Below, piece by piece: positions 863 to 15,344 of a stretch of 35,426 nt of DNA. Position 1 is the first letter of the stretch. Every line of letters starts with the position of its first letter. Location of the stretch: positions 1 to 35,426 of the forward strand of contig JAVZLK010000014.1 in assembly GCA_038883795.1 (NCBI GenBank). The letters are read 5' to 3'. This DNA comes from Candidatus Bathyarchaeia archaeon. Its GTDB lineage: Archaea > Thermoproteota > Bathyarchaeia > Bathyarchaeales > Bathycorpusculaceae. The notes below the pieces were generated by a model, which saw only the letters and a program-made list of their open reading frames with translations, did not search any database and was not told the origin of the DNA. The position numbers were made by a program, and so were the translations under genes.

Positions 863-1309
863 TTAATATGGGAATTCGGCCACGTGATAAGCTTCGATAG
901 GCGGTTTTCTTGATTCAAGTTTTTCTATGAAGTCTTCTTTGTCTAGGGGATACTAGGATGGCGTTTTTGTCTAGGGCTGTTTTAGGTAGATGGCGTCTAT
1001 TACATAAATGTTGTATTCTGCGCAGAGGGGGTAGGCTGATGTGCAGAAGGTCTTGTCGCAGTTTGTTAAGAGTGAAGGATGTATCATTAGGTCTAATTGT
1101 TCTTTTGCCTTGTCTGCCGCTGTTTTTCCAACTTTTCTTGCCAGCGTTCCGCAGACTTCTTGATAGATTATGCTTGGTTCTGTTAGGATGAATTTATCCG
1201 GCACTTTTTCCAGTAGTCCAATGCATTTCGCATTGTAGGGCTCGTCGTGTTTTAATGTGGCTATCAAAACATTTGAGTCTAATGTTAGTAGGCGGCTGGG
1301 CGGATTCAT
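863..1309 (-). pseudogene. vapC: PIN-domain (VapC-like) toxin with two compensating homopolymer indels
   Basis: The N-terminus LTLDSNVLIA and the later DAIYL motif are typical of PIN domains. The called ORF stops at 971. Adding one A in the run near 980-983 and removing one C near 946-949 gives ...DAIYLKTALDKNAILVSLDKEDFIEKLESRKPPIEAYHVAEFPY* (stop 863-865, 148 aa). Confidence 0.75.
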
Positions 1310-2042: not shown

Positions 2043-5000
2043 TTAAATAGATGTGGTTAAGAATGCGAATTTTAGCTGGTAAACGCCATTTGCTTCTTCC
2101 GTGTATGCTAAACCGATGATATTGTTGTAGCTTTGGAAAAATCCTGATATCCCGTCATATTGGTAGTAGCCTGCTAAGTTGCTTTCGATTATCCATGGAT
2201 TTGAGCCTTCGACGAAATTCCATGTTGAACCGTTATAAACTTTGTAGTAGATGCAGTTTGCTGTTGGGGCGCCTGCCCAAAAGCAATAGAGTTTGTTTGT
2301 CGCCACATCAATGGTTAGGACGGGGGATGTTTCGCTGGTTACTGCGGGCTGGACTATAGTTTCTGGTCCCCAAGAATTTAAATCATAGCTGTATTTTGTG
2401 TAGACAAGGTCGTGGGTTAAATCTTTTATGAAGACTAGGTGGACGTCGTCGCCTTGATTTACGGCAGATAAACCGCATTCAATAATTCCATCGCTTGTTA
2501 TTGCGCTTCTTGTAGTTTGTTTTTCGCTCCATGAAGAGCCGTTCCATAGGTAAGATTCAATTTGCCATCCACCACATGAGACTATGGCCAGCATTTTTTG
2601 ATTTGTTAATGGCACAATCATAACGTTTATTCCTGTATAGTTGGTTGGGGATAACTGATGTGGAAATCCTGGTGCAGTTATCCATGTTCCGTTAGAGGTT
2701 AAAGATGTTGTTATGAAGGCGTATCGGCTATTTTCAGTAGCGTTTTTTCGAGCGTAAGCCACCCAAGGTCTTCCTTCGCTGTCAATTGCGATTGAAGGCC
2801 ATAGATGTCCCGTATCACTTTCGCCAACAGTGATGTTTTGCTCATCGTCTAACCACGTTATTGTTCCATCGGCATTCGGCAATCCACACCTATAATATAA
2901 CGGGTCGCCGTTTTTCCCTGTGCTAAAAACGTAATGTAAGTGGGTTCCGTTGAAGGCGACGGCGAACCGCCATCCAGCACCGCAAGCTTTGGGTGAAAAT
3001 GGTGTGAAAGGCGTCCATGAGAAACTATCAGTTGAGGTGCTATATCCTGCACTGCTTGCGCCGTTGTAGTAGAATACCCAGAATCTTCCATTAGCGTAAA
3101 AGATTTTTCTTTGGCAAGCATATTCGACAGCTGCATATCCATAAGTTGTCAATGTTGCAATGGTGCTTTGATTCCCTGAAATTGTTAGAATTTGTATTCC
3201 AGTGGATGTCCAATTTCCTGCTGTGTTGTTTGCCCAAATACACCATTGAACCACCGCACCTATTGTGCTATTAAGGATTTTTACTATGGATGCTAGGGCA
3301 AAGGTTTTTCCTTCGCCGAAAGAAAATGTTTCGTTTACCCATACTCCTGTGTTGTTTGTGCCGAAAATATAGTGGCTGAGGTTACTGTTTTCAGCTATAA
3401 ATACTGCACTGAAATTACAAGGCGCTGCAGCTTTTGTAGTGTTTAAACTTATTTCGGAAACTTTTATGGAAGGAATTTGTGCAAGCACCGCCGTTATGGT
3501 TTTGTTTCCGTCTATAATTATAACTGCTGGATTTTGACTTCCAGAAAGATTACCGCTCCACCCTACGAAGGACCAGCCCGAAGCTGGAACCGCTGTTAGT
3601 TCAACAACATCGCCATAATAATATGGCGCTGTCTTGTTAAGGTTAACCGTTCCGCCTTCAGAGGGCGACCAGTTTATTGTTAATGTGTACTCGTTGGGGG
3701 CGAAGAACACTACTATTGTGCGGTTAGCATTTATGGAGTAGAACGTGTACGTGCCTATTGGTCCTTGGGATACGTCGTCAACAACCACATCGTATATGTG
3801 GTAGCCTACTTCTTGCGTGATTGCGAATGTTATGTTTTCGCCATAATAGGCGGTTATTAGGCCGGATGGTTGTATTGTGCCGCCAGTGCCTATTACTGAA
3901 GCATTTATGACGTATTGTTTAGGCGCAAAGTGAACTGTGATAGTCATGTTTTTGGTCATGGTTATTGTTATTGATATTTCATTACTTTCGAAGTCTCCAG
4001 TCCAGCCGACAAACTCGTAGCCTTCATCTGGAAAGGCTGTCAAAGTGACATTTTCACCTTGTTTATAGGCGGCTTTTTCCGGGTTTATGTATACTGATCC
4101 GTTGCCGTCAATTGTTATGGTCAGTAGGTAGGTTTCTTCAAATATCTCTTCTTCTGGTCCTATTGTGTAGAATACTGATGGATTAAGCTGGTTATTATAT
4201 TCTGTTAGTATCCAAACTGCGCTACGTGTAATGTTTGACACCCTAACTTCATCGATGAAGCCATAGAACTTGCGCACATGATCGTAGCGGTCGCCAATAT
4301 ACATGTTTCGGGATGGCCAAATGGGGTTTGAAGCGGGAGTAGAGGCTGGAGATCCGTCATTGACATATAGCTTAGCGGTTGTGCCGTCGAAGGTTGCCAC
4401 GACGTAGTACCATTTGTTAATGGTTATGGATTTGGAAACCATAATGTTGTTGATATATAATTCGATTCTGCTATCGCTGTAGACTTGCAGGAATGCACCC
4501 TGATATGGACTCTGGTATTGAGAAATGAAGTAGCGTGCGCCAGGTTTTGGATAAATCCAAGCGCTGAAAGTGAATTGTATTTCGGTAGTGAAGATCCGTG
4601 GCAGCTGGATGTAGCCGCCGTTGAATTTAACGCAGTTTCCTATGTATCCCATCGTACCTTGGACTAGACTGCCGTATGGTGTACCATTGTTATCGTTTAT
4701 TGTGGAATCGTAGAGTATTTCTGATCCCTCGTTTAAGTGCATTACAAGTTTGTAGTTTGTATCCCATACTCCTGTTGAATTCTGTTGGTTTCCACAGTTT
4801 TGGTTTCCATAGTACATGTAAAGAACAGTGTCCGTTATAGGAGACAAGTATGGTGCTTTAACCCAAACGATTAAGTGTCCCGTTGCACTATCATAAAGCT
4901 CTATTTGATGATCTAGTTTGATGTGGTTCGCATCTGTGAAAACGAAGTCATCTCCGTCTGGCTGTGCCTTTTCAGTGAAGCTGCTGTCAATTATTTCGAT

Positions 5001-5066
5001 TAGCACTGGGAAGTCTGTTAGTTCTCCGCCTACTTTTGTGTGATTTATTGTTATTGTTCTACGGTA
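2043..5066 (-). CDS. C-terminal half of the interrupted giant surface protein: DUF2341-type module, LamG/concanavalin-like domain, three InlB-B/bacterial-repeat Ig-like units, C-terminal beta-propeller-like region
   Basis: The frame of ORF 2043..5006 stays open up to 5069 and reads YRRTITINHTKVGGELTDFPVLIEII. It contains DUF2341 motifs (AQPDGDDFVFTD, LDHQIE, VWVKAP, LYMYYGN) and LamG motifs (FTFSAWI, WYYVVATFDG, GFIDEVRVS). It has no signal peptide of its own. Confidence 0.9.
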   Translation of the reverse strand, partial: YRRTITINHTKVGGELTDFPVLIEIIDSSFTEKAQPDGDDFVFTDANHIKLDHQIELYDSATGHLIVWVKAPYLSPITDTVLYMYYGNQNCGNQQNSTGVWDTNYKLVMHLNEGSEILYDSTINDNNGTPYGSLVQGTMGYIGNCVKFNGGYIQLPRIFTTEIQFTFSAWIYPKPGARYFISQYQSPYQGAFLQVYSDSRIELYINNIMVSKSITINKWYYVVATFDGTTAKLYVNDGSPASTPASNPIWPSRNMYIGDRYDHVRKFYGFIDEVRVSNITRSAVWILTEYNNQLNPSVFYTIGPEEEIFEETYLLTITIDGNGSVYINPEKAAYKQGENVTLTAFPDEGYEFVGWTGDFESNEISITITMTKNMTITVHFAPKQYVINASVIGTGGTIQPSGLITAYYGENITFAITQEVGYHIYDVVVDDVSQGPIGTYTFYSINANRTIVVFFAPNEYTLTINWSPSEGGTVNLNKTAPYYYGDVVELTAVPASGWSFVGWSGNLSGSQNPAVIIIDGNKTITAVLAQIPSIKVSEISLNTTKAAAPCNFSAVFIAENSNLSHYIFGTNNTGVWVNETFSFGEGKTFALASIVKILNSTIGAVVQWCIWANNTAGNWTSTGIQILTISGNQSTIATLTTYGYAAVEYACQRKIFYANGRFWVFYYNGASSAGYSTSTDSFSWTPFTPFSPKACGAGWRFAVAFNGTHLHYVFSTGKNGDPLYYRCGLPNADGTITWLDDEQNITVGESDTGHLWPSIAIDSEGRPWVAYARKNATENSRYAFITTSLTSNGTWITAPGFPHQLSPTNYTGINVMIVPLTNQKMLAIVSCGGWQIESYLWNGSSWSEKQTTRSAITSDGIIECGLSAVNQGDDVHLVFIKDLTHDLVYTKYSYDLNSWGPETIVQPAVTSETSPVLTIDVATNKLYCFWAGAPTANCIYYKVYNGSTWNFVEGSNPWIIESNLAGYYQYDGISGFFQSYNNIIGLAYTEEANGVYQLKFAFLTTSI

Positions 5067-5083
5067 GGTTCACTTAGTAGTTA
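5059..5083. repeat. Left attachment site (attL): core CTACGG(TA) plus arm TAGGTTCACTTAGTAGTTA
   Basis: The core at 5059-5066 is repeated at 9876-9883. Arm 5065-5083 matches the reverse complement of 9857-9875 at 16/19 positions. Confidence 0.88.
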
Positions 5084-5097
5084 GAAAACTATAAATA
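5084..5097 (+). promoter_or_regulatory. Putative archaeal BRE/TATA promoter of the first recombinase
   Basis: GAAAAC-TATAAATA, with the TATA at 5090-5097, ~35 bp upstream of ATG 5133 and immediately inside the left arm. Confidence 0.5.
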
Positions 5098-5132
5098 CGG
5101 ATTCCGACAGAGACTAGGCTAGGTAAGGAAAA

Positions 5133-6440
5133 ATGGAAAACGTAACAAAGTGGTTAATGAAAGTGTCCAATTCAAAGGCTACCGTAAGTAACTATGAATA
5201 TCGCATTAGAAAATTTGCGTCATATATGAAGGAGCATTTCAACATTGACATAGAAACATTGAAGGATGCATATCGAGAAGCTAAGTATAAGGGTGAAATT
5301 GAAAGAGAGAAATTCTTAGATAGGCTACATGATGCGATTGAGGATTATGTTTGTTTCTTTAAGACGCAGGGCTATACCAATATGCACGTTAAAGTTATGG
5401 TTTCGATAATCTCTAGCTACATAAAGAAGGGATGCGGAATAAGAGATATTGACATAGATATACCGAAAAGACCTTTCCCAATATATCATAACCGAGACAT
5501 AACAAAAGAAGAGATTAGAAAAATCCTAGAGCATTGTTCACTTAGAGACCGTGCATTCTTTCTAATGATGGTTGAAAGCGGATTAAGACCTAGCACACTT
5601 CTAGGCTTACGTTATAAGCATATCAAACAAGACTTTGAAAGAAACATTATTCCAATGAAGATAGAGTTACCTTCAGAATTGTTGAAAGACCGCATAAGTG
5701 CAAGATGGAGTTTCATAGGTGAAGACGGCTTTAAAGTATTGAAGGAATATCTTAGCGCACGAAAAGACATAGGTGATAACGATTTCTTATTCTTACCTGA
5801 AAAGCCTAGTAGAGTAAAAGCTGAAGTTCCTAGCGAATCTGCAATGAGCAACAAATTTAACCGAATAGTGTTAAAACTAGGCTTAGACACGCCATTACAT
5901 AAAGGAAAACCCAAAAGCCTAAGGTTGTATAGCTTACGCAAATATTTCTTTAACAATATGAAGTGTGATAGTGCATACCGAAACTATTGGTTCTGTCATA
6001 AAAGCATTGATGACCACTACATAAGTCAAGACGTGCAAAAACATAGAGAAGAGTATGCCAAAGGCTACAAGTTTCTAAGAATTTATGAACCTAGCGATAT
6101 AGATGTGCGTATTGAGGCTTTAACTAGAGAATTAAAGGAAAAACATCAGAGAATACAAGAATTAGAAGAGAAGTTTGAAAGGTTACAACCATTGATAGAC
6201 TTTGTTAATGAATTTTTCAATGAGACGACTCTATCACAGTTTCTTAACGATATAAAGAATGTAGATGTCTTGAGTGTTGAAAAAAAGAATGGTGAAGGAA
6301 TTTCGTTTATGAATTTGAGTCGCCAAACTGTGAAGCTTTTAGCGGAATTTATGAAAAGGCATAACATAAGTGATCCTGACGAAGCATTAAATACCCTCTT
6401 TAGAATGGTAATAGAATCAAAGAAACAACAACAACCTTAA
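5133..6440 (+). CDS. Tyrosine recombinase/integrase 1 (XerC/D-like) with C-terminal coiled coil and RHH-like tail
   Basis: N-terminal SAM-like region (SKATVSNYEYRIRKF). Catalytic motifs are LRDRA...ESGLRPS (Arg), YSLRKYF (YxxR in place of HxxR) and WFCHKSIDDHY (His, Tyr). Confidence 0.9.
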   Translation: MENVTKWLMKVSNSKATVSNYEYRIRKFASYMKEHFNIDIETLKDAYREAKYKGEIEREKFLDRLHDAIEDYVCFFKTQGYTNMHVKVMVSIISSYIKKGCGIRDIDIDIPKRPFPIYHNRDITKEEIRKILEHCSLRDRAFFLMMVESGLRPSTLLGLRYKHIKQDFERNIIPMKIELPSELLKDRISARWSFIGEDGFKVLKEYLSARKDIGDNDFLFLPEKPSRVKAEVPSESAMSNKFNRIVLKLGLDTPLHKGKPKSLRLYSLRKYFFNNMKCDSAYRNYWFCHKSIDDHYISQDVQKHREEYAKGYKFLRIYEPSDIDVRIEALTRELKEKHQRIQELEEKFERLQPLIDFVNEFFNETTLSQFLNDIKNVDVLSVEKKNGEGISFMNLSRQTVKLLAEFMKRHNISDPDEALNTLFRMVIESKKQQQP

Positions 6441-6462
6441 CCTTCTCTTTTTTCTTTTGTTT
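6441..6462 (+). terminator. T-rich archaeal-type terminator candidate
   Basis: CCTTCTCTTTTTTCTTTTGTTT directly follows the integrase 1 stop codon. Confidence 0.4.
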
Positions 6463-6507
6463 CGTAAGAGTTCATACTTAAATATTGAATCTTTCATAAT
6501 AACAATT

Positions 6508-6693
6508 ATGCAATATAGACTAAACAAAAAAAACTTTACTAGACTGCAGAATAAGTTTATGCCTTTCAAATGTTATCGGTGTGGAAGACGGTTTAAAATT
6601 GGCGACTTTATTATATCTAAACGGAATGCAAGGGCGAAACATAGAAAGTTTTATCACTATTCCTGCTTCGAATCTTTATATTTGGAGGCGTAA
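6508..6693 (+). CDS. Small basic Zn-finger protein (CxxC...HxxC)
   Basis: KCYRCGRRF...FYHYSCF. ATG 6508 is a more plausible start than TTG 6457. The stop lies 3 bp before the next ORF. Confidence 0.7.
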   Translation: MQYRLNKKNFTRLQNKFMPFKCYRCGRRFKIGDFIISKRNARAKHRKFYHYSCFESLYLEA

Positions 6694-6696
6694 GAG

Positions 6697-7140
6697 TTGA
6701 GTGAGTTTCAACTTCCAAATTTAACCATAAAAGACAAAATCAACTATCCATACATTTTGGCTAATGCACTTCTAAAGTTTCAAGAGGCTATCATTAAAGC
6801 TGAAGGAGAACTAAGCGAGCAAGAGGTTAGAGAAGCGGCATTATGCCTTTTTAACATGATTCCTAAAACTTGGTATGATGAAAAATTCATAAAAGACGTA
6901 AAAAAGGCTACGTTTAAAGTGAAAGTTGATGTTCGTAAAGAATGGTGTGGTGTAAAGGTTGGACAACCAAAATATGAAAAGGTTGAAGAGATTAACCCTT
7001 ATAGGCTTGTCAATGCTTGCGTGAATCTTTTAGAACGTAGAGAACTTATTTCTAAGAAAGAAAGAATTGAGAAGGTGGAAGGTGTTTACATTGAGCCTGA
7101 CGGAGAGTTTGAAGAGCCTACGGAAGAAGTCAGCACCTAG
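6697..7140 (+). CDS. Hypothetical protein (element-encoded, acidic C-tail)
   Basis: 147-aa ORF with GGAGG ~8 bp upstream of the TTG start; tightly packed in an operon with the Zn-finger and ATPase genes. Confidence 0.75.
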   Translation: MSEFQLPNLTIKDKINYPYILANALLKFQEAIIKAEGELSEQEVREAALCLFNMIPKTWYDEKFIKDVKKATFKVKVDVRKEWCGVKVGQPKYEKVEEINPYRLVNACVNLLERRELISKKERIEKVEGVYIEPDGEFEEPTEEVST

Positions 7141-7144
7141 CTAC

Positions 7145-8053
7145 ATGAATTTTCACGGTTTCAAAGTTTTTAGAGATGCGGATAGAGGATATTCACCTTA
7201 CTTTCAAAGTATGCTAGCCTATCGGATTAAAAGAAAATTGGCAACTAACATAGTTGTTACGGGTGAAGCTGGAATCGGCAAAAGCTATTTGGCTACGGAT
7301 ATCGCTAGAATCATCGAAGGCTTAGACGAGAATGGAAATGATAGGTTTAGCCTAGACCAGGTAGTATTCACTTATGCCGAGTTTATGGATTTGGTTCTAG
7401 AGTTAGAGCATGGAAGACCTATCGTTTTTGATGAGCCTAGTTATGCTATGGGTAAGCGTGAGTGGTATAGGGATTTGAATAAGGTTCTAGTTCAAACCAT
7501 TGAATCTTTTCGGTTTAAAGTGCATCCGTTAATCATTCCAATAATCAATAAGAGCCTTTTAGACAAGACGTTGAGAGAACATTTAATTCAATATCAAGTT
7601 GTGGTTTATGATAGAGGTAAAGCTACGGTTTACCGTGTTAAGCCTTCCCAATTTATTGACCGAGTCTATTATGCCTATTTCTGCAAGCTAGAGTATAGCC
7701 TATTGGATATGCACTTATGCAACCGTGAATCATGCCTAGACTGTAGCCAACTGGCGACTTGTAACATCTTTAGGGCTAGGTATGAACGTAAAAAGGCAAG
7801 CATACAAGACACAAGATACGAGCAGGCAAGAGACCAGGCGGCACAAGTTGAAACTAGGAAGCTAACGGTTTCTCAATTGGAGAACCTAGCTTTATCCATA
7901 AAAGACAAGTTCATTGAAAACGGCAAGCTGTCGGTTCAGAAACTACGAGTAGCAATGATGGACACATACGGAATAAGCCTATCTAATCCTAAGGCATATC
8001 AGTTGAAAGCTAGCCTAGAAATCCACTATGGAAACAAACTATACGAAAGTTAG
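7145..8053 (+). CDS. P-loop NTPase (Zot-like/virus-associated AAA-type) with a Cys cluster
   Basis: Walker A GEAGIGKS, Walker B PIVFDE, and the Cys motif CNRESCLDCSQLATC. ATG 7145 lies 4 bp after the upstream stop and is preferred over the overlapping 7067 start. Confidence 0.85.
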   Translation: MNFHGFKVFRDADRGYSPYFQSMLAYRIKRKLATNIVVTGEAGIGKSYLATDIARIIEGLDENGNDRFSLDQVVFTYAEFMDLVLELEHGRPIVFDEPSYAMGKREWYRDLNKVLVQTIESFRFKVHPLIIPIINKSLLDKTLREHLIQYQVVVYDRGKATVYRVKPSQFIDRVYYAYFCKLEYSLLDMHLCNRESCLDCSQLATCNIFRARYERKKASIQDTRYEQARDQAAQVETRKLTVSQLENLALSIKDKFIENGKLSVQKLRVAMMDTYGISLSNPKAYQLKASLEIHYGNKLYES

Positions 8054-8256
8054 CACTATAATTATCATTTTTCTTTTCACCATCTTTTCATTAAGTTTTA
8101 AACACTAGCTTTTCTAACATTCAAATAGAGAGAAAAGAAGGCTAAACAATAATTATATGTTGAACTTGTCTGTTTAATTAATCATAATAGTTATAAGTTA
8201 GAAGGGGCATTTTTCTTCTGGATTGAGTTAGAAATCTAGGCAAAGGTGAGAGTATA

Positions 8257-9750
8257 GTGAGCTTAGAAAGGTTCTTAGAGAAAGAGAACGTTCAACCTTC
8301 CATAGAAAAGAAAACTCAAGTCGGCTTTGTTGATGATTGGCTTAACAAAAACTTCCGAGTTGAAAAAACAAAAAGGGATTATGTTTTAGCAATTCAACTT
8401 TTCGTAAAGGCTATCTATGGTAATGATGCTACTGATTACAATGGCTTTATTTCGAGATACTTTAAGGAACAAAGAAACTTTCTAGAAGACTTAAAGACAT
8501 TCATTCAATATATGAATAGAGAAGGATATGCACCTCGTTCTATTCATACGCTAACAATCGTAATTAAGAAGTTCTTTTCAAGACATGGGCATAAGATTTC
8601 TGATGATGACTGGGAAGATATTAGCCGAGGTTTACTACCACCTAATGTAGCGGCTACACAAGACGAGATTCTAACAAAAGACCAATGCAAAATGTTGTTA
8701 CCTCACTTCTCGGTTCTAGGCAAAGCAATATTCCTTTTCCTATTAAACACTGGTGCAAGGATAGGTGAAACATTGAAACTTAGAGTGGATGACTTCAATT
8801 TGGAGACGGATCCGCCTAGCGTGTATATTCGCCCACAATATACTAAGGGCGGTGTTGGTGGGCGTGTTATGTGGTTTAGCTATGAGGCGAAAGAGGCTCT
8901 TATAGAATGGTGGAAAGTTAAGGATACAAAAAAGAAACGTGGTAGAGCTGGTAAATTTCCGAAAGAAATGGCTTTTGGCATCAAACCAATTGGTTTTAAT
9001 CTGATGTTAAATATGGCATTACGCAAAGCTGGTTTAGCGAAAAGAGACCCTTCAACAAAAACCAAATTCTACATCTATCATGTTCATACTTTGCGGAAGT
9101 TCTTTTCTACGGCTATGAGTGAAGCTGGAGTTCCAGAATCTATCATTCACGCATGGATGGGACATAAAGGCTACCTGGATAGTGCATACAAGCGTTACAC
9201 GAAAGAAAAGCTGGCTCAAATCTATAAGGAACACATGGATGCGGTTACAATTCAGGGCGGAGTTTCAAAGCACATTCTAGAAGAGCTTAAAATGTTAAGG
9301 CAAAAAAACGAAGAGATAGAGACGCTTAAGAAACTATGTGAAGAGAAAGGAATCAAAAATGGAAGACCTTTAGTTGAGATGTTTAAGGATTTGGCTCTAG
9401 TATTGGCTAAAGAACTTAGTGAAGTTTCTAAGCCTATTCAACCACAACCGATTAAGCCAATTCCACAAGAAACATCACAACCTACTAAAAGTGAGGCAGT
9501 TAGGCCTACCCAAGTAGTTGAAAATGTGCCTATCCCTGAAAAGCCTAAGGAATTGGAAAAGCCAAAAGTTGATTCTACACCTAAAACTTATACACAGTTG
9601 ATTAAAGAAGGAAAATGCCTTAGACAATTGGATTTAAAGGATGCGAAACAATGGGAAATAGCTTGCCATTGGTGTTTCAACAATTACCGTTACACTTATG
9701 ACCAGTGTAGGGCTACGGTTAAAGTGCAAGTAGCAGAGAAAACAATTTAA
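8257..9750 (+). CDS. Tyrosine recombinase/integrase 2 with Pro-rich linker and C-terminal Cys cluster
   Basis: Catalytic set is NTGARIGE (Arg), TKGG (Lys), HTLRKFF (HxxR) and WMGHKGYLDSAY (His, Tyr). RBS GGTGA lies upstream of the GTG start. The C-tail has KPIQPQPIKPIP then C...ACHWC...C. Confidence 0.93.
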   Translation: MSLERFLEKENVQPSIEKKTQVGFVDDWLNKNFRVEKTKRDYVLAIQLFVKAIYGNDATDYNGFISRYFKEQRNFLEDLKTFIQYMNREGYAPRSIHTLTIVIKKFFSRHGHKISDDDWEDISRGLLPPNVAATQDEILTKDQCKMLLPHFSVLGKAIFLFLLNTGARIGETLKLRVDDFNLETDPPSVYIRPQYTKGGVGGRVMWFSYEAKEALIEWWKVKDTKKKRGRAGKFPKEMAFGIKPIGFNLMLNMALRKAGLAKRDPSTKTKFYIYHVHTLRKFFSTAMSEAGVPESIIHAWMGHKGYLDSAYKRYTKEKLAQIYKEHMDAVTIQGGVSKHILEELKMLRQKNEEIETLKKLCEEKGIKNGRPLVEMFKDLALVLAKELSEVSKPIQPQPIKPIPQETSQPTKSEAVRPTQVVENVPIPEKPKELEKPKVDSTPKTYTQLIKEGKCLRQLDLKDAKQWEIACHWCFNNYRYTYDQCRATVKVQVAEKTI

Positions 9751-9856
9751 TGCCTTTTGCTAAGTGTTCTATTGAGGCTATGAAGACATCGAGGTAATAT
9801 GAAGGGGACAAGATGATTTGTTTTTCCGCTTCTGAGCCTCTTTAAAGCTGATACAT

Positions 9857-9883
9857 TAACTACTAACTTAATCTACTACGGTA
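9857..9883. repeat. Right attachment site (attR): arm TAACTACTAACTTAATCTA plus core CTACGGTA
   Basis: Inverted partner of arm 5065-5083. It contains the TAG stop (9863-9865, minus strand) that ends the upstream host ORF. Confidence 0.88.
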
Positions 9884-12800
9884 CTTCCAAGAGATGTTCC
9901 ACCAGTCTGCTGGAATTTCCACGAAGACAGCTGTAATATTTTTGTTTCCGTCGATGATTATGGTGATCGTCTCGTTTGTTCCGGACAGGTCGCCACTCCA
10001 GTGAGAAAATGTCCAACCATTCTCAGCGATGGCTGTTAACTCCACCACGGTGCCATAAGTGTATGTTGGCAGATCTGGATTCTTTGTCACTGAACCGCTT
10101 CCTTCCGGAGAAACGTTCACTGTTAAAGTGTAATTGTTTGGAGCGAAGAACGCTGTTATGGTATGGTTTGCGCATACAGCGTAGAATGTATATGAGGATA
10201 TTGATCCTCGGGATTCGCCGTCCACTAATACTTCAAGAATATGACAGCCTATGTTAGGCGTAATTGTGAAAGTTATGTTTTCGCCATGATATGCTGTTAC
10301 TGGGCCAGAGGGTTCTATAGTTCCACCAGTACTGCCTACCAACGCAGCAATAATGTATTGTTTGAGATTGAAGTGTGCCGTTACAGTCATGTTGCCAGTA
10401 ATTATGAAGGTTATAGGATTATCTAAACTTGAAATGTTCCCGCTCCAGTGGCTGAAACTCCAGCCAATATAAGCGGATGCGTTCAATTGAACTGGGGTTC
10501 CATAAGTGTATGTTGGCTGTTCTGGCGATTTAATTACATTTCCTGAGCCTTCAACATTTATGGTCAGAACATATTGTTCTTGGGTGAAGTTAGCATAAAC
10601 TGTTTTATTGTTATCCATTAGAATTATTGTAGGATTCTCGCTGCCTGAAATGTCTCCGCTCCACCAAACAAATTTCCAGCCCGCGTCTGGTACAGCTGTT
10701 AATGTTACGTTTTCGCCGTGAGCGTAGAATGCAAAGTCCGGGTTTTTGTTTACCGTACCATTGCCGATTATGATAATGGTTAATGTGTATGGGTTTTGCG
10801 TAAAAATTGCTGTTACGGATTCGTTGCTATTCATCATAATCGTTATTGGATTCTCACTACTTGAGGTATCACCGCTCCAACCAGCAAACATCCAGCCGGG
10901 ATAAGCAGTGGCTGATAGTGTTACGTTTTCACCATAAGTGTACGTTAGTTTGTTTGGTTCGATTGTCACGTTGCCGTTTCCAAGAATGGTTATTGTTAAG
11001 ATGTAGTGGTCTTGTGTGAATACCGCTGTCACCGTTTTGTTATCATCAATTATTATGGTTGTTGGGTTTTGGCTGCCATTTAAATCCCCCTCCCAATGGG
11101 AGAATGACCATCCAGCATTTGGAACAGCAGTCAATTCAACTACGTCGCCATAATGGTATGGGACTGTTTTGTTAAAGTTAACGTAGCCACCGTCTATTGG
11201 TGATATGTTTATCGACAGTGTGTATTCGGTTTTGTTAAAGACGGCAACTACGGTTTTGTTCCCATTCATTAGTATAGTTGTTGGGTTTTTGTTGCCTGTT
11301 AAGTCGCCATCCCAATGTGAAAATGCATAGCCAATGTCTGCTATTGCAGTCAACTGGACAAGTGTGCCGTAGGGATAAGTTTCATTGTCAGGGTTTTTGG
11401 TGACTGAACCGTTTCCAACCGTTGATATGGTTAAGGTCACATTTCCCTGGCTTGGTGGAACTTCTTCTGTTGTAAACGTGAAGGTTTTTGTATTTGTGTT
11501 GGTTCCATCCGTGGCTGTTACTGTCCAAGTGTAGGTTGTTGAGTAGGCTAAGCTGTTGACTGGAACCGTAATTATTCCATTAGGTACGTTTATACCGCTA
11601 GCTGATACTATGTTTGGGTTAGTTGTGACTGTGTAATTTATCGGGTCGCTTTGGTAATCTGTCAATTTAAAGCTCAAGTACGGAAGAGTCACCGAAACGT
11701 TTGTTAAGCCATCATTAGGCGAGATTTCAGATATTCTTGGCTCTTGTGGTCCTGGTGGAGGCCTATAAACTGGTACGCTTCCCCTGTATTGGTGGTAGTG
11801 GGTAAGCCCGGATTTTGGTAGCGGGTTTGGTGCAGACACTTCTACGTCATAGACGCTAATCCAACTATTATGCTGATTGAAGACTAGTTCAAGCTTGCCG
11901 TCGGCGTCTATGTCTTGAACTATGAAAAACGCATGGACCATGGGCAGGTTTATGGTTCCTATGATATCATAATTTTTTGTGACGGAATTATATTTGAAGA
12001 TGGTTACGTTATTTACGTTGCAGTCTAATATCTCCCATTTTCCATCTCCATCCACATCAGCTAATCCAGGAGGATGTAGACATGGAAACGGAAGCGTAGC
12101 ATCCAATTTCCAGTTAACCAAATCCCATATCTTGGGCTGCTTTCGATCACGAGCCGTTATCAATTCAAGGTTGCCGTCGCCATCCACGTCAGCAACGGTT
12201 GGAGGATCATGCGCTGGCAAACCAAGGTTCAGTTTCTTCCGATATATGCCCTTATACGTGTTAACACTTCCGTCCGTGTTAATAACTGCGATGCCACCAC
12301 TTGTAGTACCTTGGTTAAGTATGATTATTTCAAGATCTCCATCATTATCCACGTCTGCAATTGTAGGAGCTTGACTGCTACACAGTATGTCAGGGTAGGC
12401 CCATATTTCAGTTAGATTATCTGCCCAAAAAGCTCTAAGCCCCCTTCCACCAGAGGGATACGATGGATACGATTCGCTTCTTTCACCTAAATAAACTTCA
12501 AATACTCCGTCAAAATCAGTGTCCGCTAAACTCATTCCACCATAACACGTATAATAAGTATAGGTGGAGGCAAATATCTGACCATCATAAGTTAGAGCGG
12601 TAACCCGGCTTGGATAAGCAGAAAAGATTTCAGGATATCCGTCAGCGTTAATATCGCCCACAGCTATGTACGTACCTTTTCCAGCAGCTTTTGTATTATA
12701 CCACCAAATAGAACCGTTGATTCCGTGTAGAACCATTACTCCGTTGCTGGTAGTTCCGTTGACATATTGGGGGGCCATCACTATTTCCAGAAAGCCATCT

Positions 12801-13141
12801 TTGTTTAAGTCTACTATCTCCATAGGAACATGATCACCACCATATGGTACTGACCATATAACTTCGCCTGTTTCGGGATCTAGTGCTGCTGTCTTCCCGG
12901 TTAACCCGGATATCACTATTTCCATATCGCCGTCGTTGTTTAAATCAGCTGCCAACGGACCCATCCACGTACTGCCGGTGCCGGCATTAGCTTTCCATTT
13001 TAACGTTATCGAAAGTGTGTTTTGTTGTCCAAACACGTGGGTAACATCTATAAAGCTAACAAAGCCTTGAATAACTAGAATGATCAAAATTATGCTTAAC
13101 AATTTTTTATGTAAGTTCAATCGGTACCTTTCTCCAACCAT
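9863..13141 (-). CDS. N-terminal half of the interrupted giant secreted surface protein: signal peptide, FG-GAP/VCBS-type beta-propeller, Ig-like domain, seven InlB-B/bacterial-repeat units
   Basis: Hydrophobic N-terminus (KKLLSIILIILVIQGFVSF), repeated Ca-binding DxNxDGxxEI motifs, and YTLTI...G.V.K.P...Y.YG..V.LTA....GW.F..W.GD repeats. The last four residues (SRLS*) derive from the element end. Confidence 0.92.
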   Translation of the reverse strand: MVGERYRLNLHKKLLSIILIILVIQGFVSFIDVTHVFGQQNTLSITLKWKANAGTGSTWMGPLAADLNNDGDMEIVISGLTGKTAALDPETGEVIWSVPYGGDHVPMEIVDLNKDGFLEIVMAPQYVNGTTSNGVMVLHGINGSIWWYNTKAAGKGTYIAVGDINADGYPEIFSAYPSRVTALTYDGQIFASTYTYYTCYGGMSLADTDFDGVFEVYLGERSESYPSYPSGGRGLRAFWADNLTEIWAYPDILCSSQAPTIADVDNDGDLEIIILNQGTTSGGIAVINTDGSVNTYKGIYRKKLNLGLPAHDPPTVADVDGDGNLELITARDRKQPKIWDLVNWKLDATLPFPCLHPPGLADVDGDGKWEILDCNVNNVTIFKYNSVTKNYDIIGTINLPMVHAFFIVQDIDADGKLELVFNQHNSWISVYDVEVSAPNPLPKSGLTHYHQYRGSVPVYRPPPGPQEPRISEISPNDGLTNVSVTLPYLSFKLTDYQSDPINYTVTTNPNIVSASGINVPNGIITVPVNSLAYSTTYTWTVTATDGTNTNTKTFTFTTEEVPPSQGNVTLTISTVGNGSVTKNPDNETYPYGTLVQLTAIADIGYAFSHWDGDLTGNKNPTTILMNGNKTVVAVFNKTEYTLSINISPIDGGYVNFNKTVPYHYGDVVELTAVPNAGWSFSHWEGDLNGSQNPTTIIIDDNKTVTAVFTQDHYILTITILGNGNVTIEPNKLTYTYGENVTLSATAYPGWMFAGWSGDTSSSENPITIMMNSNESVTAIFTQNPYTLTIIIIGNGTVNKNPDFAFYAHGENVTLTAVPDAGWKFVWWSGDISGSENPTIILMDNNKTVYANFTQEQYVLTINVEGSGNVIKSPEQPTYTYGTPVQLNASAYIGWSFSHWSGNISSLDNPITFIITGNMTVTAHFNLKQYIIAALVGSTGGTIEPSGPVTAYHGENITFTITPNIGCHILEVLVDGESRGSISSYTFYAVCANHTITAFFAPNNYTLTVNVSPEGSGSVTKNPDLPTYTYGTVVELTAIAENGWTFSHWSGDLSGTNETITIIIDGNKNITAVFVEIPADWWNISWKYRSRLS

Positions 13142-13260: not shown

Positions 13261-14385
13261 TCATTCCATTAATTGCTTGTAAATTGAGCATAGTTTATTG
13301 CAAGCGTTTTCCAATGAGTATTGCTCTTTAACGAGTTTTCGCCCATCACGAGCCATTTTTAACCTAACATCCTCGTTTTTAAGCAAATAATCTATAGCTT
13401 CTGCCAGCTGGATGGAATTGCCTGGCGGAATTAAAATCCCAGTCTCATGGTTTTTGATTATTTCTGGAGCACCGCCAACAGGAGTCGCTATTACGGAGGT
13501 TTCACAGGATAGAGCTTCTAGAATTGTCACGGGGAAGCCTTCAGCGAATGATGGGAGAATGAGAAGTGAAGCCTTTTGATACCATTCTATTATTTCGCTT
13601 TGTTCCATGGCGCCCAAATATTTTATTTCGTGTTTTCCTTTCTTGTTTTCATTTTTAATTAGATTTAACAAGCTTTGATAGTAGTTGGCATTCCAGCCCG
13701 GCGGCCCAATTATGACCAAGTGCACACTTTCTTTCAAATATTTTAGAGCTCTTATTAGTATGTGTAAGCCTTTAAGTTCTGAGATTCTGCCAACGTACAG
13801 AAGCAAATTTTTCTCTTTATGGTTTCCTGGTTTGAAGAAGTTTGTGTCTATGCTGTTTGGCACGTAAGTGATTTTGCTTTCTGGGATTCCAAGGGCTATT
13901 AACTCTTTTGTCATCTGGTTTGATAGGGAGACGTATATGTTAGCTAAATGTTTTAGCAGGAATCTGCTTACGTGATGTTTTTTTAGGAAGTTGGATTTTA
14001 TTCCATGCAGGTGGATTATTTTTGGTTTTTTTATGAAGTATGAGAAGAATGGGAAGCTTAGTTCAAACTCGTGAAAGTGTATAATATCATAGTTTTTTAA
14101 TATGTTAGTGAATCTTCCTGGTATGAAGTTGACTCCTGCTGTAATTTTGTATGAATGTAGTTTCCATAGCCAATTTAACGCTGGGATTCTGAACACTGAG
14201 ATTCCGTCGATTTTTTCTGTTTTTCCATGCCATTTTGGTTTTCTATTTTGATCCACGTTGAATGTCATTATGTCTGTTTGTATGCCGTTTTTGTTAAGGG
14301 TTATGGCAAGGTTTCTAACTATTGTTTCTGTGCCGCCTTTAACCGGATAGTAACAAGGAGTAACCATTAAAACGTGCATAGGCAT
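13261..14385 (-). CDS. Glycosyltransferase family 4 (GT-B)
   Basis: YYPVKGGTE N-terminus, LYVGRISELKG, and PSFAEGFPVTILEALSC (EX7E). Confidence 0.93.
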   Translation of the reverse strand: MPMHVLMVTPCYYPVKGGTETIVRNLAITLNKNGIQTDIMTFNVDQNRKPKWHGKTEKIDGISVFRIPALNWLWKLHSYKITAGVNFIPGRFTNILKNYDIIHFHEFELSFPFFSYFIKKPKIIHLHGIKSNFLKKHHVSRFLLKHLANIYVSLSNQMTKELIALGIPESKITYVPNSIDTNFFKPGNHKEKNLLLYVGRISELKGLHILIRALKYLKESVHLVIIGPPGWNANYYQSLLNLIKNENKKGKHEIKYLGAMEQSEIIEWYQKASLLILPSFAEGFPVTILEALSCETSVIATPVGGAPEIIKNHETGILIPPGNSIQLAEAIDYLLKNEDVRLKMARDGRKLVKEQYSLENACNKLCSIYKQLME

Positions 14386-14396
14386 CCTTTAAGCGA

Positions 14397-15344
14397 TTAT
14401 TGAAGTGTTTCATAGAAAAATGTATGAAAGTGGTTTTTGATGAATTTTGGATGGTAATTGAAGCGGTTTACAGCCCATCTGATGCTTGTTTGGTAGGAGT
14501 TGTTTATTTTTTCTTTGGTTATTGTTAGTTTTTTGTATGGGGTGTTGAGGGTGATGCTGGTGTCTATTATTTTGGCTTTCTGTAAAGTTTTTATTCTTTT
14601 TATCAAGAGTTCGAGTTTTTGGAATAGGCGTTCTATTTCTTCTGCTGGTCTTTTGGGGACTGTTGAGAGGGTTTTCGGGTTTCCTTTATAATATATGGAG
14701 TCCCATTCGATTTTGTTCACGAGTAATGTTGGATGTAGGTCGAAAATTGTTATTTTATGTCGTAGTATTGAGGAGAGGAGACATTTGTAGTTGTATGTTG
14801 TACCGTTCCATTGCTGTGTTACTGTATATGGGTAGAAGGTTAATTTCTTATAGGAAACTGGTTCTGAGTTTGTGAGGTTTGCGGAGAAATCGTATTTTAT
14901 GCCGAGACTTTTTAAGGCTTCAAGGTGTGGCGGTGTCCAACACATGCCCGGCGCTCGAAAGGCCTCTATTTTTTTGGGATGAAATAGTTTTTGAAGGAAG
15001 TATATTCCGCCTTCTCCCTCTATTTTTCCTGTTAACGGGTTTATATGGGAAGTTTCCCTTTCCGCTGCGATTTCGCAAGCTTTTTCGTAGCTTTTTAGGT
15101 CGGTGTATTCTGGGATTGTTGGGCGAACCGAATGGTTGGAAGAATGAAAGCCAATTTCGTGGCTTTTAAGCATCTCAACAATTTGTGGGTAACTACTTAT
15201 TTTTTCAGCCATAAGCCCTGTAATAAAGAATATAGCCTTCAACTTATATTTTTGTAAGATTTTAAGGATTCTTTGAAGCGCAGAAGTAGCGTTTGGGTTT
15301 ATGAAATCTTCAACATCAAATGTTAATAACAACTTTTGTTTCAT
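14397..15344 (-). CDS. Polysaccharide deacetylase family protein (NodB/CE4-like)
   Basis: LLTFDVED, HEIGFHSSNH and FRAPG motifs. Confidence 0.85.
   Translation of the reverse strand: MKQKLLLTFDVEDFINPNATSALQRILKILQKYKLKAIFFITGLMAEKISSYPQIVEMLKSHEIGFHSSNHSVRPTIPEYTDLKSYEKACEIAAERETSHINPLTGKIEGEGGIYFLQKLFHPKKIEAFRAPGMCWTPPHLEALKSLGIKYDFSANLTNSEPVSYKKLTFYPYTVTQQWNGTTYNYKCLLSSILRHKITIFDLHPTLLVNKIEWDSIYYKGNPKTLSTVPKRPAEEIERLFQKLELLIKRIKTLQKAKIIDTSITLNTPYKKLTITKEKINNSYQTSIRWAVNRFNYHPKFIKNHFHTFFYETLQ

Follow-up and report, generated by a model that had tools for sequence, protein, structure and literature searches.

An integrative element with a C/D-box sRNA copy splits a surface-protein gene in a Bathyarchaeia genome

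Introduction

In the available text of a review of archaeal recombinases, the integration targets are transfer RNA (tRNA) genes, intergenic regions and coding genes, and small RNA (sRNA) genes are not mentioned (PMC8371274). The accessible part of a survey of integrated mobile elements in thaumarchaea gives the same three targets and likewise does not mention small nucleolar RNA (PMC6563490). Non-coding RNAs make up 13.5% of the RNA targets in another study, whose main text, as far as available, names no C/D RNAs (PMC13626063), and a Pyrobaculum C/D RNA survey describes sRNAs resembling miniature inverted-repeat transposable elements, its available sections leaving integration and viruses unmentioned (PMC6009581). 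Comparable elements are reported, in the part of the source available, to excise in Asgard archaea (PMC11529989). Here we describe a 4,817-bp integrative element that splits an adhesin-like surface-protein gene of an uncultivated Bathyarchaeia archaeon. The window, meaning the whole stretch of DNA analysed, comprises the 35,426 nucleotides of contig JAVZLK010000014.1 (assembly GCA_038883795.1), which is contig C14 of the 2.18-Mb, 87% complete genome denoted G000.

The element resembles tRNA-targeting archaeal elements in having a tyrosine integrase next to the attachment site, short direct repeats and a conserved RNA gene as the target of its group; in two relatives (G508 and G248), as in those elements, an element-borne half restores the target. 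It differs from them in that the RNA gene is a C/D-box sRNA guide, that two integrases are present, that a whole spare RNA gene is carried, and that the copy in the window lies in the middle of a gene and not at a 3' end. Small size, a virus-type ATPase gene after a gene of about 150 residues and the lack of a capsid gene are shared with pSSVx/pSSVi and the haloarchaeal SRCE satellites, as described in the accessible portions of PMC9608457 and bioRxiv 10.1101/2025.02.15.638363. Among the genes of pSSVx are A154 and the one for the B251 ATPase (PMC9608457, available text); A154 and orf147 of our element are alike in size and position, although orf147 has no significant family or fold match. As in those satellites, the pair of orf147 and ATPase is also part of larger virus-like elements, whereas no replication gene was recognised in our element and a hidden Markov model (HMM) search for helper-type genes found none in the 87%-complete genome.

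With respect to the recombination site, the bacterial CTnDOT element offers a parallel. Its integrase IntDOT acts on sites whose coupling sequences vary, apart from a dinucleotide that is conserved on one side of the overlap (PMC2817482, as far as the text is available), and imperfect inverted repeats flank the site in both cases. Unlike our element, CTnDOT is conjugative and has a 7-bp overlap, and the tolerance of mismatch that we propose for our element derives from two cores, TCGAGG and CTACGG. SPbeta in spsM (PMC4191935, seen in part) is the precedent for regulated restoration of a gene; as in SPbeta/spsM and skin/sigK, our element interrupts a gene that precise excision would rebuild. 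However, those sites are dedicated and developmentally induced and, according to the accessible text, the SPbeta arrangement is shared between species, whereas the site in the window is confined to a single genome, differs from the target seen in the relatives of the element, and has yielded no excision product.

Results

The surface-protein gene and the inserted element

The octamer CTACGGTA stands at 5059-5066 and again at 9876-9883, spaced by 4,817 bp, and is the sole exact repeat of at least 6 nt shared by the junction regions (5030-5110 compared with 9840-9910). When the 4,817 bp were removed, a 6,282-bp frame of 2,093 residues with only a terminal stop was obtained. The upstream open reading frame (ORF) of 1,092 residues terminates in WKYR-SRLS, and the downstream frame of 1,008 residues is free of stops. 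The direct repeats, the joined frame, the ends of the two ORFs and the domain content of each half had been described in an earlier note made from the sequence of the window, and all were reproduced here, except that a putative second propeller in the 3' half found no match in Pfam. The features are as follows.

9863..13141, minus strand: 5' half of the surface-protein gene, 1,092 residues; hydrophobic N-terminus, FG-GAP propeller and 7 Flg_new_2 repeats; the final 4 residues are element-encoded
2043..5066, minus strand: 3' half of the surface-protein gene; DUF2341, LamG, further repeats and an unclassified C-terminal region; stop-free, without a signal peptide of its own
5059..9883, plus strand: integrative element, 4,817 bp plus one copy of the core
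5059..5083, plus strand: left attachment site, 6-bp core CTACGG followed by an inverted-repeat arm
9857..9883, plus strand: right attachment site, inverted-repeat arm, core CTACGG, then TA
5133..6440, plus strand: integrase 1, tyrosine recombinase of 435 residues
6559..6693, plus strand: Cys/His (Zn-finger-like) ORF of 44 residues, also present in related elements (cluster HMM, E 4e-7)
6697..7140, plus strand: orf147, a predicted helical protein without a known family, located immediately before the ATPase gene in many related virus-like elements
7067..8053, plus strand: viral-type P-loop ATPase, matching PHROG 5484 'DnaA-like'; among named folds closest to ATV ORF286, also Zot/pI-like
8257..9750, plus strand: integrase 2, tyrosine recombinase of 497 residues, 22% identical to integrase 1
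9774..9839, plus strand: complete C/D-box sRNA copy with boxes C, D', C' and D and a terminal stem, homologous to G000:C7:39532-39602 on the minus strand

Taken alone, the octamer is weak evidence for insertion boundaries, as a repeat of this type has an estimated chance expectation of about 0.1 in the scanned area and the genome holds 15 copies of it. The boundaries go beyond chance because imperfect 20-nt inverted arms adjoin the cores at the same ends (5064-5083 and 9857-9876, 85%), because the same arms and cut points recur in the related element L030, and because relatives possess unbroken genes. The gene of G194, which has the identical octamer at the site, aligns without a break to residues 595-1420 of the joined protein, and those of G075 and G029 are likewise continuous through the same codons. 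Since these three genes run through the junction, the joined frame represents the ancestral state, and comparison with them supports the conclusion that precise excision would restore the ancestral full-length gene. The cut, which the earlier note had placed at a domain boundary, is near one but falls within the DUF2341 module, some 10 residues into its conserved N-terminal W..W.YR motif.

To compare DUF2341 loci, we took 30 of them, the window's own included, from matches in 38 of 301 family genomes, and regarded a locus as interrupted if a stop lay at most 12 codons upstream or an integrase lay within 1.5 kb. Only the locus of the window was interrupted; the other 29 were all unbroken (0/29 interrupted). 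For the DUF2341-LamG block, the ratios of nonsynonymous to synonymous substitution (dN/dS) against G029, G194 and G075 were 0.13, 0.11 and 0.15 (dS 0.8-1.0), values which reflect the history preceding the insertion and as such are not evidence of current selection. The stop-free 3' half caps the neutral divergence since insertion at about 0.9-2.1% (95%), and its intactness is consistent with a recent insertion, with no selection required.

The sequence supports the insert being a discrete and apparently intact tyrosine-recombinase element. Every reading frame of it is open, its guanine-cytosine content is 36.5% compared with 42.7% in the gene halves, and PF00589 scored above the cut-off in both integrases. 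The layout of arm, 6-bp core and arm is that of a tyrosine-recombinase site, as judged from sequence, and the gene of integrase 1 begins about 70 nt from the left core. We infer that integrase 1 acts on the ends because these track with it in L030, whose integrase 2 differs. The 44-residue Cys/His ORF is a possible regulator or directionality factor. Among the five ORFs of the element there was no capsid-like gene and no recognisable replication gene of plasmid type, and genome G000 contains no second copy of the element. Relatives of the element proteins carry the label Candidatus Bathyarchaeota, which, together with the sRNA shared by a genome of that label (see below), suggests a host of Bathyarchaeia type. 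Three short genome matches to the element were considered as CRISPR spacers and ruled out, all being coding sequence, and scans with sigma-70 promoter and terminator models, which are unsuited to archaea, gave results at chance level.

Some observations concern the surroundings of the surface-protein gene. A paralogous gene with FG-GAP and DUF2341/LamG domains (G000:C22:23339-25798) is uninterrupted at the equivalent motif and ends at the contig edge. Directly upstream of the adhesin-like gene, window positions 13261-15344 on the minus strand hold glycosyltransferase and polysaccharide-deacetylase genes, which suggests a surface-glycan locus. A PIN-domain gene (971-1309, minus strand) lies just beyond the 3' end, along with short imperfect repeats at 1377-1740, and short contigs from other sequencing runs match this stretch.

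Targets of related elements

The closest relative with both ends sequenced is the L030 element, whose integrase 1 is 78% identical. Its arms and cut points are those of the element in the window, but both of its ends carry the core TCGAGG. When the flanks of L030 were joined, they formed a C/D-box sRNA gene, with the insertion in the D' guide. Two more distant elements, in G508 (4.4 kb, integrase 40% identical) and G248 (6.1 kb, 37%), interrupt the same TCGAGG hexamer and supply their own 5' half of the sRNA, restoring box C at the far end. The integrase tree places the window and L030 in one supported clade and G508 and G248 in another.

Among the other relatives, the sRNA-site element of G248 on contig C2 (L151:2221-8600) carries a three-gene ABC transporter consisting of a binding protein, a permease and a TOBE-domain ATPase, which we take to be of the tungstate/molybdate type, and has at its end the attachment/sRNA segment in three tandem copies of 110 bp. 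Seven integrase-1 relatives (L153, L185-L187, L189-L191) have in common a conserved motif upstream of the integrase and a conserved, divergently oriented small gene. Scans of viral contigs with integrase 1 or with an alignment yielded no relatives, nor did a scan of genome contigs with the ATPase as a single protein. DNA-pattern matches in viral contigs (7 and 10) were set aside as chance, being without nearby element proteins or C/D context. When 301 genomes were scanned with a loose pattern for split sRNA genes, the matches were mostly noise, and none of 11 checked loci had an integrase-1 homologue or C/D context.

The C/D-box sRNA of the host and of the element

The host's own sRNA gene on contig C7 is intact and unoccupied. 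An exact pattern found this sRNA in 37 of 101 relatives, including two recognised false matches (L122 and L143). We then used a covariance model built from the window copy and 25 of 30 fetched loci, with L121, L122, L133, L135 and L143 excluded, which detected it in 33 of 35 genomes of the family and 68 of 151 of the order; a genome labelled Candidatus Bathyarchaeota has it as well. In the alignment of 26 sequences, 103 of 104 stem cells were paired and two of the four stem pairs showed compensatory change. All four boxes are recognisable in the element copy and its D' guide core is invariant, with two of the four pairs of the 4-bp terminal stem altered on both sides. Four of four Rfam matches were CD-box families, all below the gathering score. 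Free-energy folding did not stand out (z -0.5 and -1.5), which is normal for C/D RNAs.

The D' guide includes the core and is complementary, over 10 Watson-Crick pairs, to the 23S ribosomal RNA (rRNA) of G012 near position 2623. When the N+5 rule was applied (as given in the available text of PMC4644070), the host and element copies were predicted to designate the same 23S cytidine. For the D guide, no match beyond 7 Watson-Crick pairs was found in 16S or 23S rRNA. The designated cytidine is presumably the equivalent of E. coli C2498. The host genome also encodes a Nop-domain gene. With the host gene intact, the copy at the adhesin site appears from sequence to have no evident use there; its presence points to a life at the sRNA site.

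Additional sRNA copies in six genomes were host paralogues, with no integrase near any of the 13 loci checked. These paralogues (L294-L306) mostly retain the D' guide and differ in the D guide, and G151 holds three copies.

Junctions in assembled contigs

The read evidence consists of assembled contigs only, from four runs (X1-X4) of two studies, X1 being possibly the source of the window DNA. In X1, the left junction is spanned by an 8.5-kb contig (depth 20.6) and the right one by a contig of 22.7 kb (depth 21.3); in each case the match extends over thousands of bases to one side of the junction and over more than 31 to the other. Misassembly, which the earlier note had wanted checked together with coverage, is therefore unlikely, and depth was equal inside and outside the element, with the qualification that X1 may itself be the source. 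In highly improbable form, an assembly chimera could have joined the element of another strain into the gene, given that related elements occur in the same run and that its contigs break within the sRNA copy at 9771-9800, but single contigs cross each junction at equal depth and the core is duplicated exactly at the arm-defined ends.

The empty-site and circle joints that the earlier note had proposed to look for were not found in the contigs of the four runs, X1 included, with the limit that contigs drop rare variants. The assembly of X1 retained contigs as shallow as depth 2.8-4.4. The empty-site fraction in the X1 population is probably minor, though contigs cannot demonstrate absence. In contigs of related elements, the match begins at 5063 in X2 and ends at 9875 in X3. 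If the first four bases of their core were different, the alignment would stop at these points, which fits a different core sharing GG. Short contigs match the sRNA segment in X1 (as a second, low-depth variant), X2 and X3. X4 gave no matching contig.

Virus-type cargo

The ATPase has 435 relatives, and 63 of 65 aligned members match PHROG 5484. The best fold matches of its model (predicted local distance difference test score 90) were unnamed viral proteins, ATV ORF286 and Zot/pI proteins, all with modest template modelling (TM) scores; ATV ORF286 ranked second (E 6e-7, TM 0.37-0.41). A Huangdivirus of Bathyarchaeia has an ATV-like ATPase, according to the accessible part of its description (PMC10541130). 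A tblastn search of two ATPases against named phage records gave no match. For orf147, there was no significant family match, and fold comparison returned only generic helical bundles (best Z 6.5).

We surveyed 82 ATPase loci after dropping L106 as marginal. A shared membrane-anchored gene was present in 32, a multi-pass membrane gene in 20, a large spike-like gene in 21, a gene for a 70-residue hydrophobic hairpin in 12, and a long integrase of the window's cluster in 10. The membrane-anchored, multi-pass and spike-like genes occurred together in 17 of the 26 loci of at least 9 kb. The hairpin gave no sequence match in PHROG, Pfam or the PDB; 'capsid protein' for it and 'virus' for the larger elements are leads. 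The ATPase-bearing loci resemble spindle-shaped proviruses and reduced satellites, and that the element in the window is such a satellite is likewise a lead.

A virus-like module recurs in L036, L048-L062, L067-L077 and L104 (for example L060:688-10566), comprising the spike-like, multi-pass membrane and 70-residue hairpin genes, two more conserved genes, orf147, the ATPase and a short integrase of 210-270 residues. The module had no PHROG or PDB match and is possibly an unreported group of spindle-like viruses. L104 sits in a bin titled Anaerolineae and is probably misbinned. One virus-like element encodes a DUF2341-LamG protein (L067:251-1432), the same module that the element in the window entered.

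Discussion

We consider it probable that the split gene is the outcome of a recent secondary-site insertion, into an adhesin-like gene, of a tyrosine-recombinase element that targets an sRNA gene. As part of this explanation, the normal target of the element lineage would be the TCGAGG hexamer in the D' guide of the conserved C/D-box sRNA gene. The adhesin site and the sRNA site have only GG-TAC in common. By analogy with IntDOT, integrase 1 may recombine 6-bp cores and accept mismatched ones provided that they have the terminal GG in common. The spare sRNA would offset the disruption of the normal target, and orf147 and the ATPase could let the excised circle exploit a helper virus of the spindle type, as pSSVx does. 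In the host, most cells would be expected to make the truncated protein of 1,092 residues. As the cores at both ends are identical, excision now would be exact and would rebuild the gene, with no sign of host control.

Several observations weigh against this explanation. Both ends of the element carry the adhesin core CTACGG, and one mismatch-tolerant insertion should leave the donor core at one end, so that a further step has to be assumed, either repair of both heteroduplexes toward the host sequence or capture of CTACGG by the circle in an earlier excision. Compensation for the damaged target is not universal, since L030 has neither a spare sRNA copy nor a restored box C. Of the 37 loci related through integrase 1 that we examined, only 3 were seen to lie in the sRNA site; for most, no ends could be defined. 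Moreover, L024:6235-10679 has the same four-gene order as the element in the window with an integrase 1 of a different clade, and it is flanked by a 13-bp direct repeat in an intergenic position just downstream of a radical-SAM-like gene. The tree does not resolve how the G508/G248 clade is linked to the clade of L030 and the element in the window, and L030 is the only close relative with both ends sequenced.

The identical adhesin-type cores at both ends, together with the empty sRNA site of the host, would also be expected if the element had been retargeted, that is, if its circle had captured the CTACGG core following an initial off-target event and now cycled in and out of DUF2341 adhesin genes, producing long and short variants stochastically and without regulation. 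We hold this to be unlikely, though a serious competitor. G194, which belongs to another genus, has the same octamer with a nearly identical flank, so the site would be available across hosts, and the open frames of the element and the intact 3' half also agree with cycling. By contrast, X1 yielded no empty-site or circle contig despite its retention of shallow contigs, rare variants being prone to loss from contigs, none of the other 29 DUF2341 loci, that of G194 included, is occupied, and the spare sRNA remains intact. Similarity of the site to the arms speaks on both sides: the adhesin site ranks 14th among 422 CTACGG sites (the sRNA site of the host ranks 5th among 512 TCGAGG sites), but 1,081 of 8,394 NNNNGGTA sites score at least as high as the adhesin site with a matrix of four sequences. 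As such, arm similarity adds little to explaining the choice of site.

A broader picture can be drawn, which we offer as speculative and rather doubtful. A Bathyarchaeia-type group of elements, in part satellites of spindle-like viruses not yet reported, would use a C/D-box sRNA gene as attachment site and repair or complement it. A mismatch-tolerant integrase would have captured a new 6-bp core and so retargeted the present copy to a DUF2341 codon, and reversible excision would now toggle the surface protein between 1,092 and 2,093 residues.

The earlier note had left the choice between a switch and a recent insertion. The latter fits better with the relatives in the sRNA gene, the spare sRNA, the 29 uninterrupted loci and the lack of empty-site or circle contigs, and the regulated switch found no support. 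A rearrangement controlled by the host in the style of skin/sigK or SPbeta/spsM, in which a signal triggers excision and changes the short protein into the long one, is improbable. While exact restoration is possible, the short form retains its N-terminus and whole repeats, and the small Zn-finger ORF could serve as a directionality factor, the interrupted state is not conserved among the homologous loci, the relatives of the element are located elsewhere, the virus-type cargo and the sRNA belong to a different life style, and no excision product was detected in contigs.

Taken all together, the gene is truly split and the split could in principle be reversed, and the C/D sRNA target with the element-borne copy is the notable part of the finding. 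In the literature searched, we found no archaeal C/D sRNA attachment site and no element-borne C/D guide, although the supplements of PMC13626063 may list cases. The sRNA target stands irrespective of how the adhesin site is read: elements with integrases of two lineages occupy one and the same hexamer in a conserved gene for a predicted rRNA-methylation guide, and the fate of this gene differs, being rebuilt by the element's own half in G508 and G248, left broken in L030, and accompanied by a whole spare in the element of the window. As the two close elements share their arms and differ in their cores, they allow a direct test of whether a tyrosine integrase can switch targets. Should excision from the adhesin gene turn out to be frequent, it would amount to surface variation driven by a mobile element in an uncultivated archaeon.

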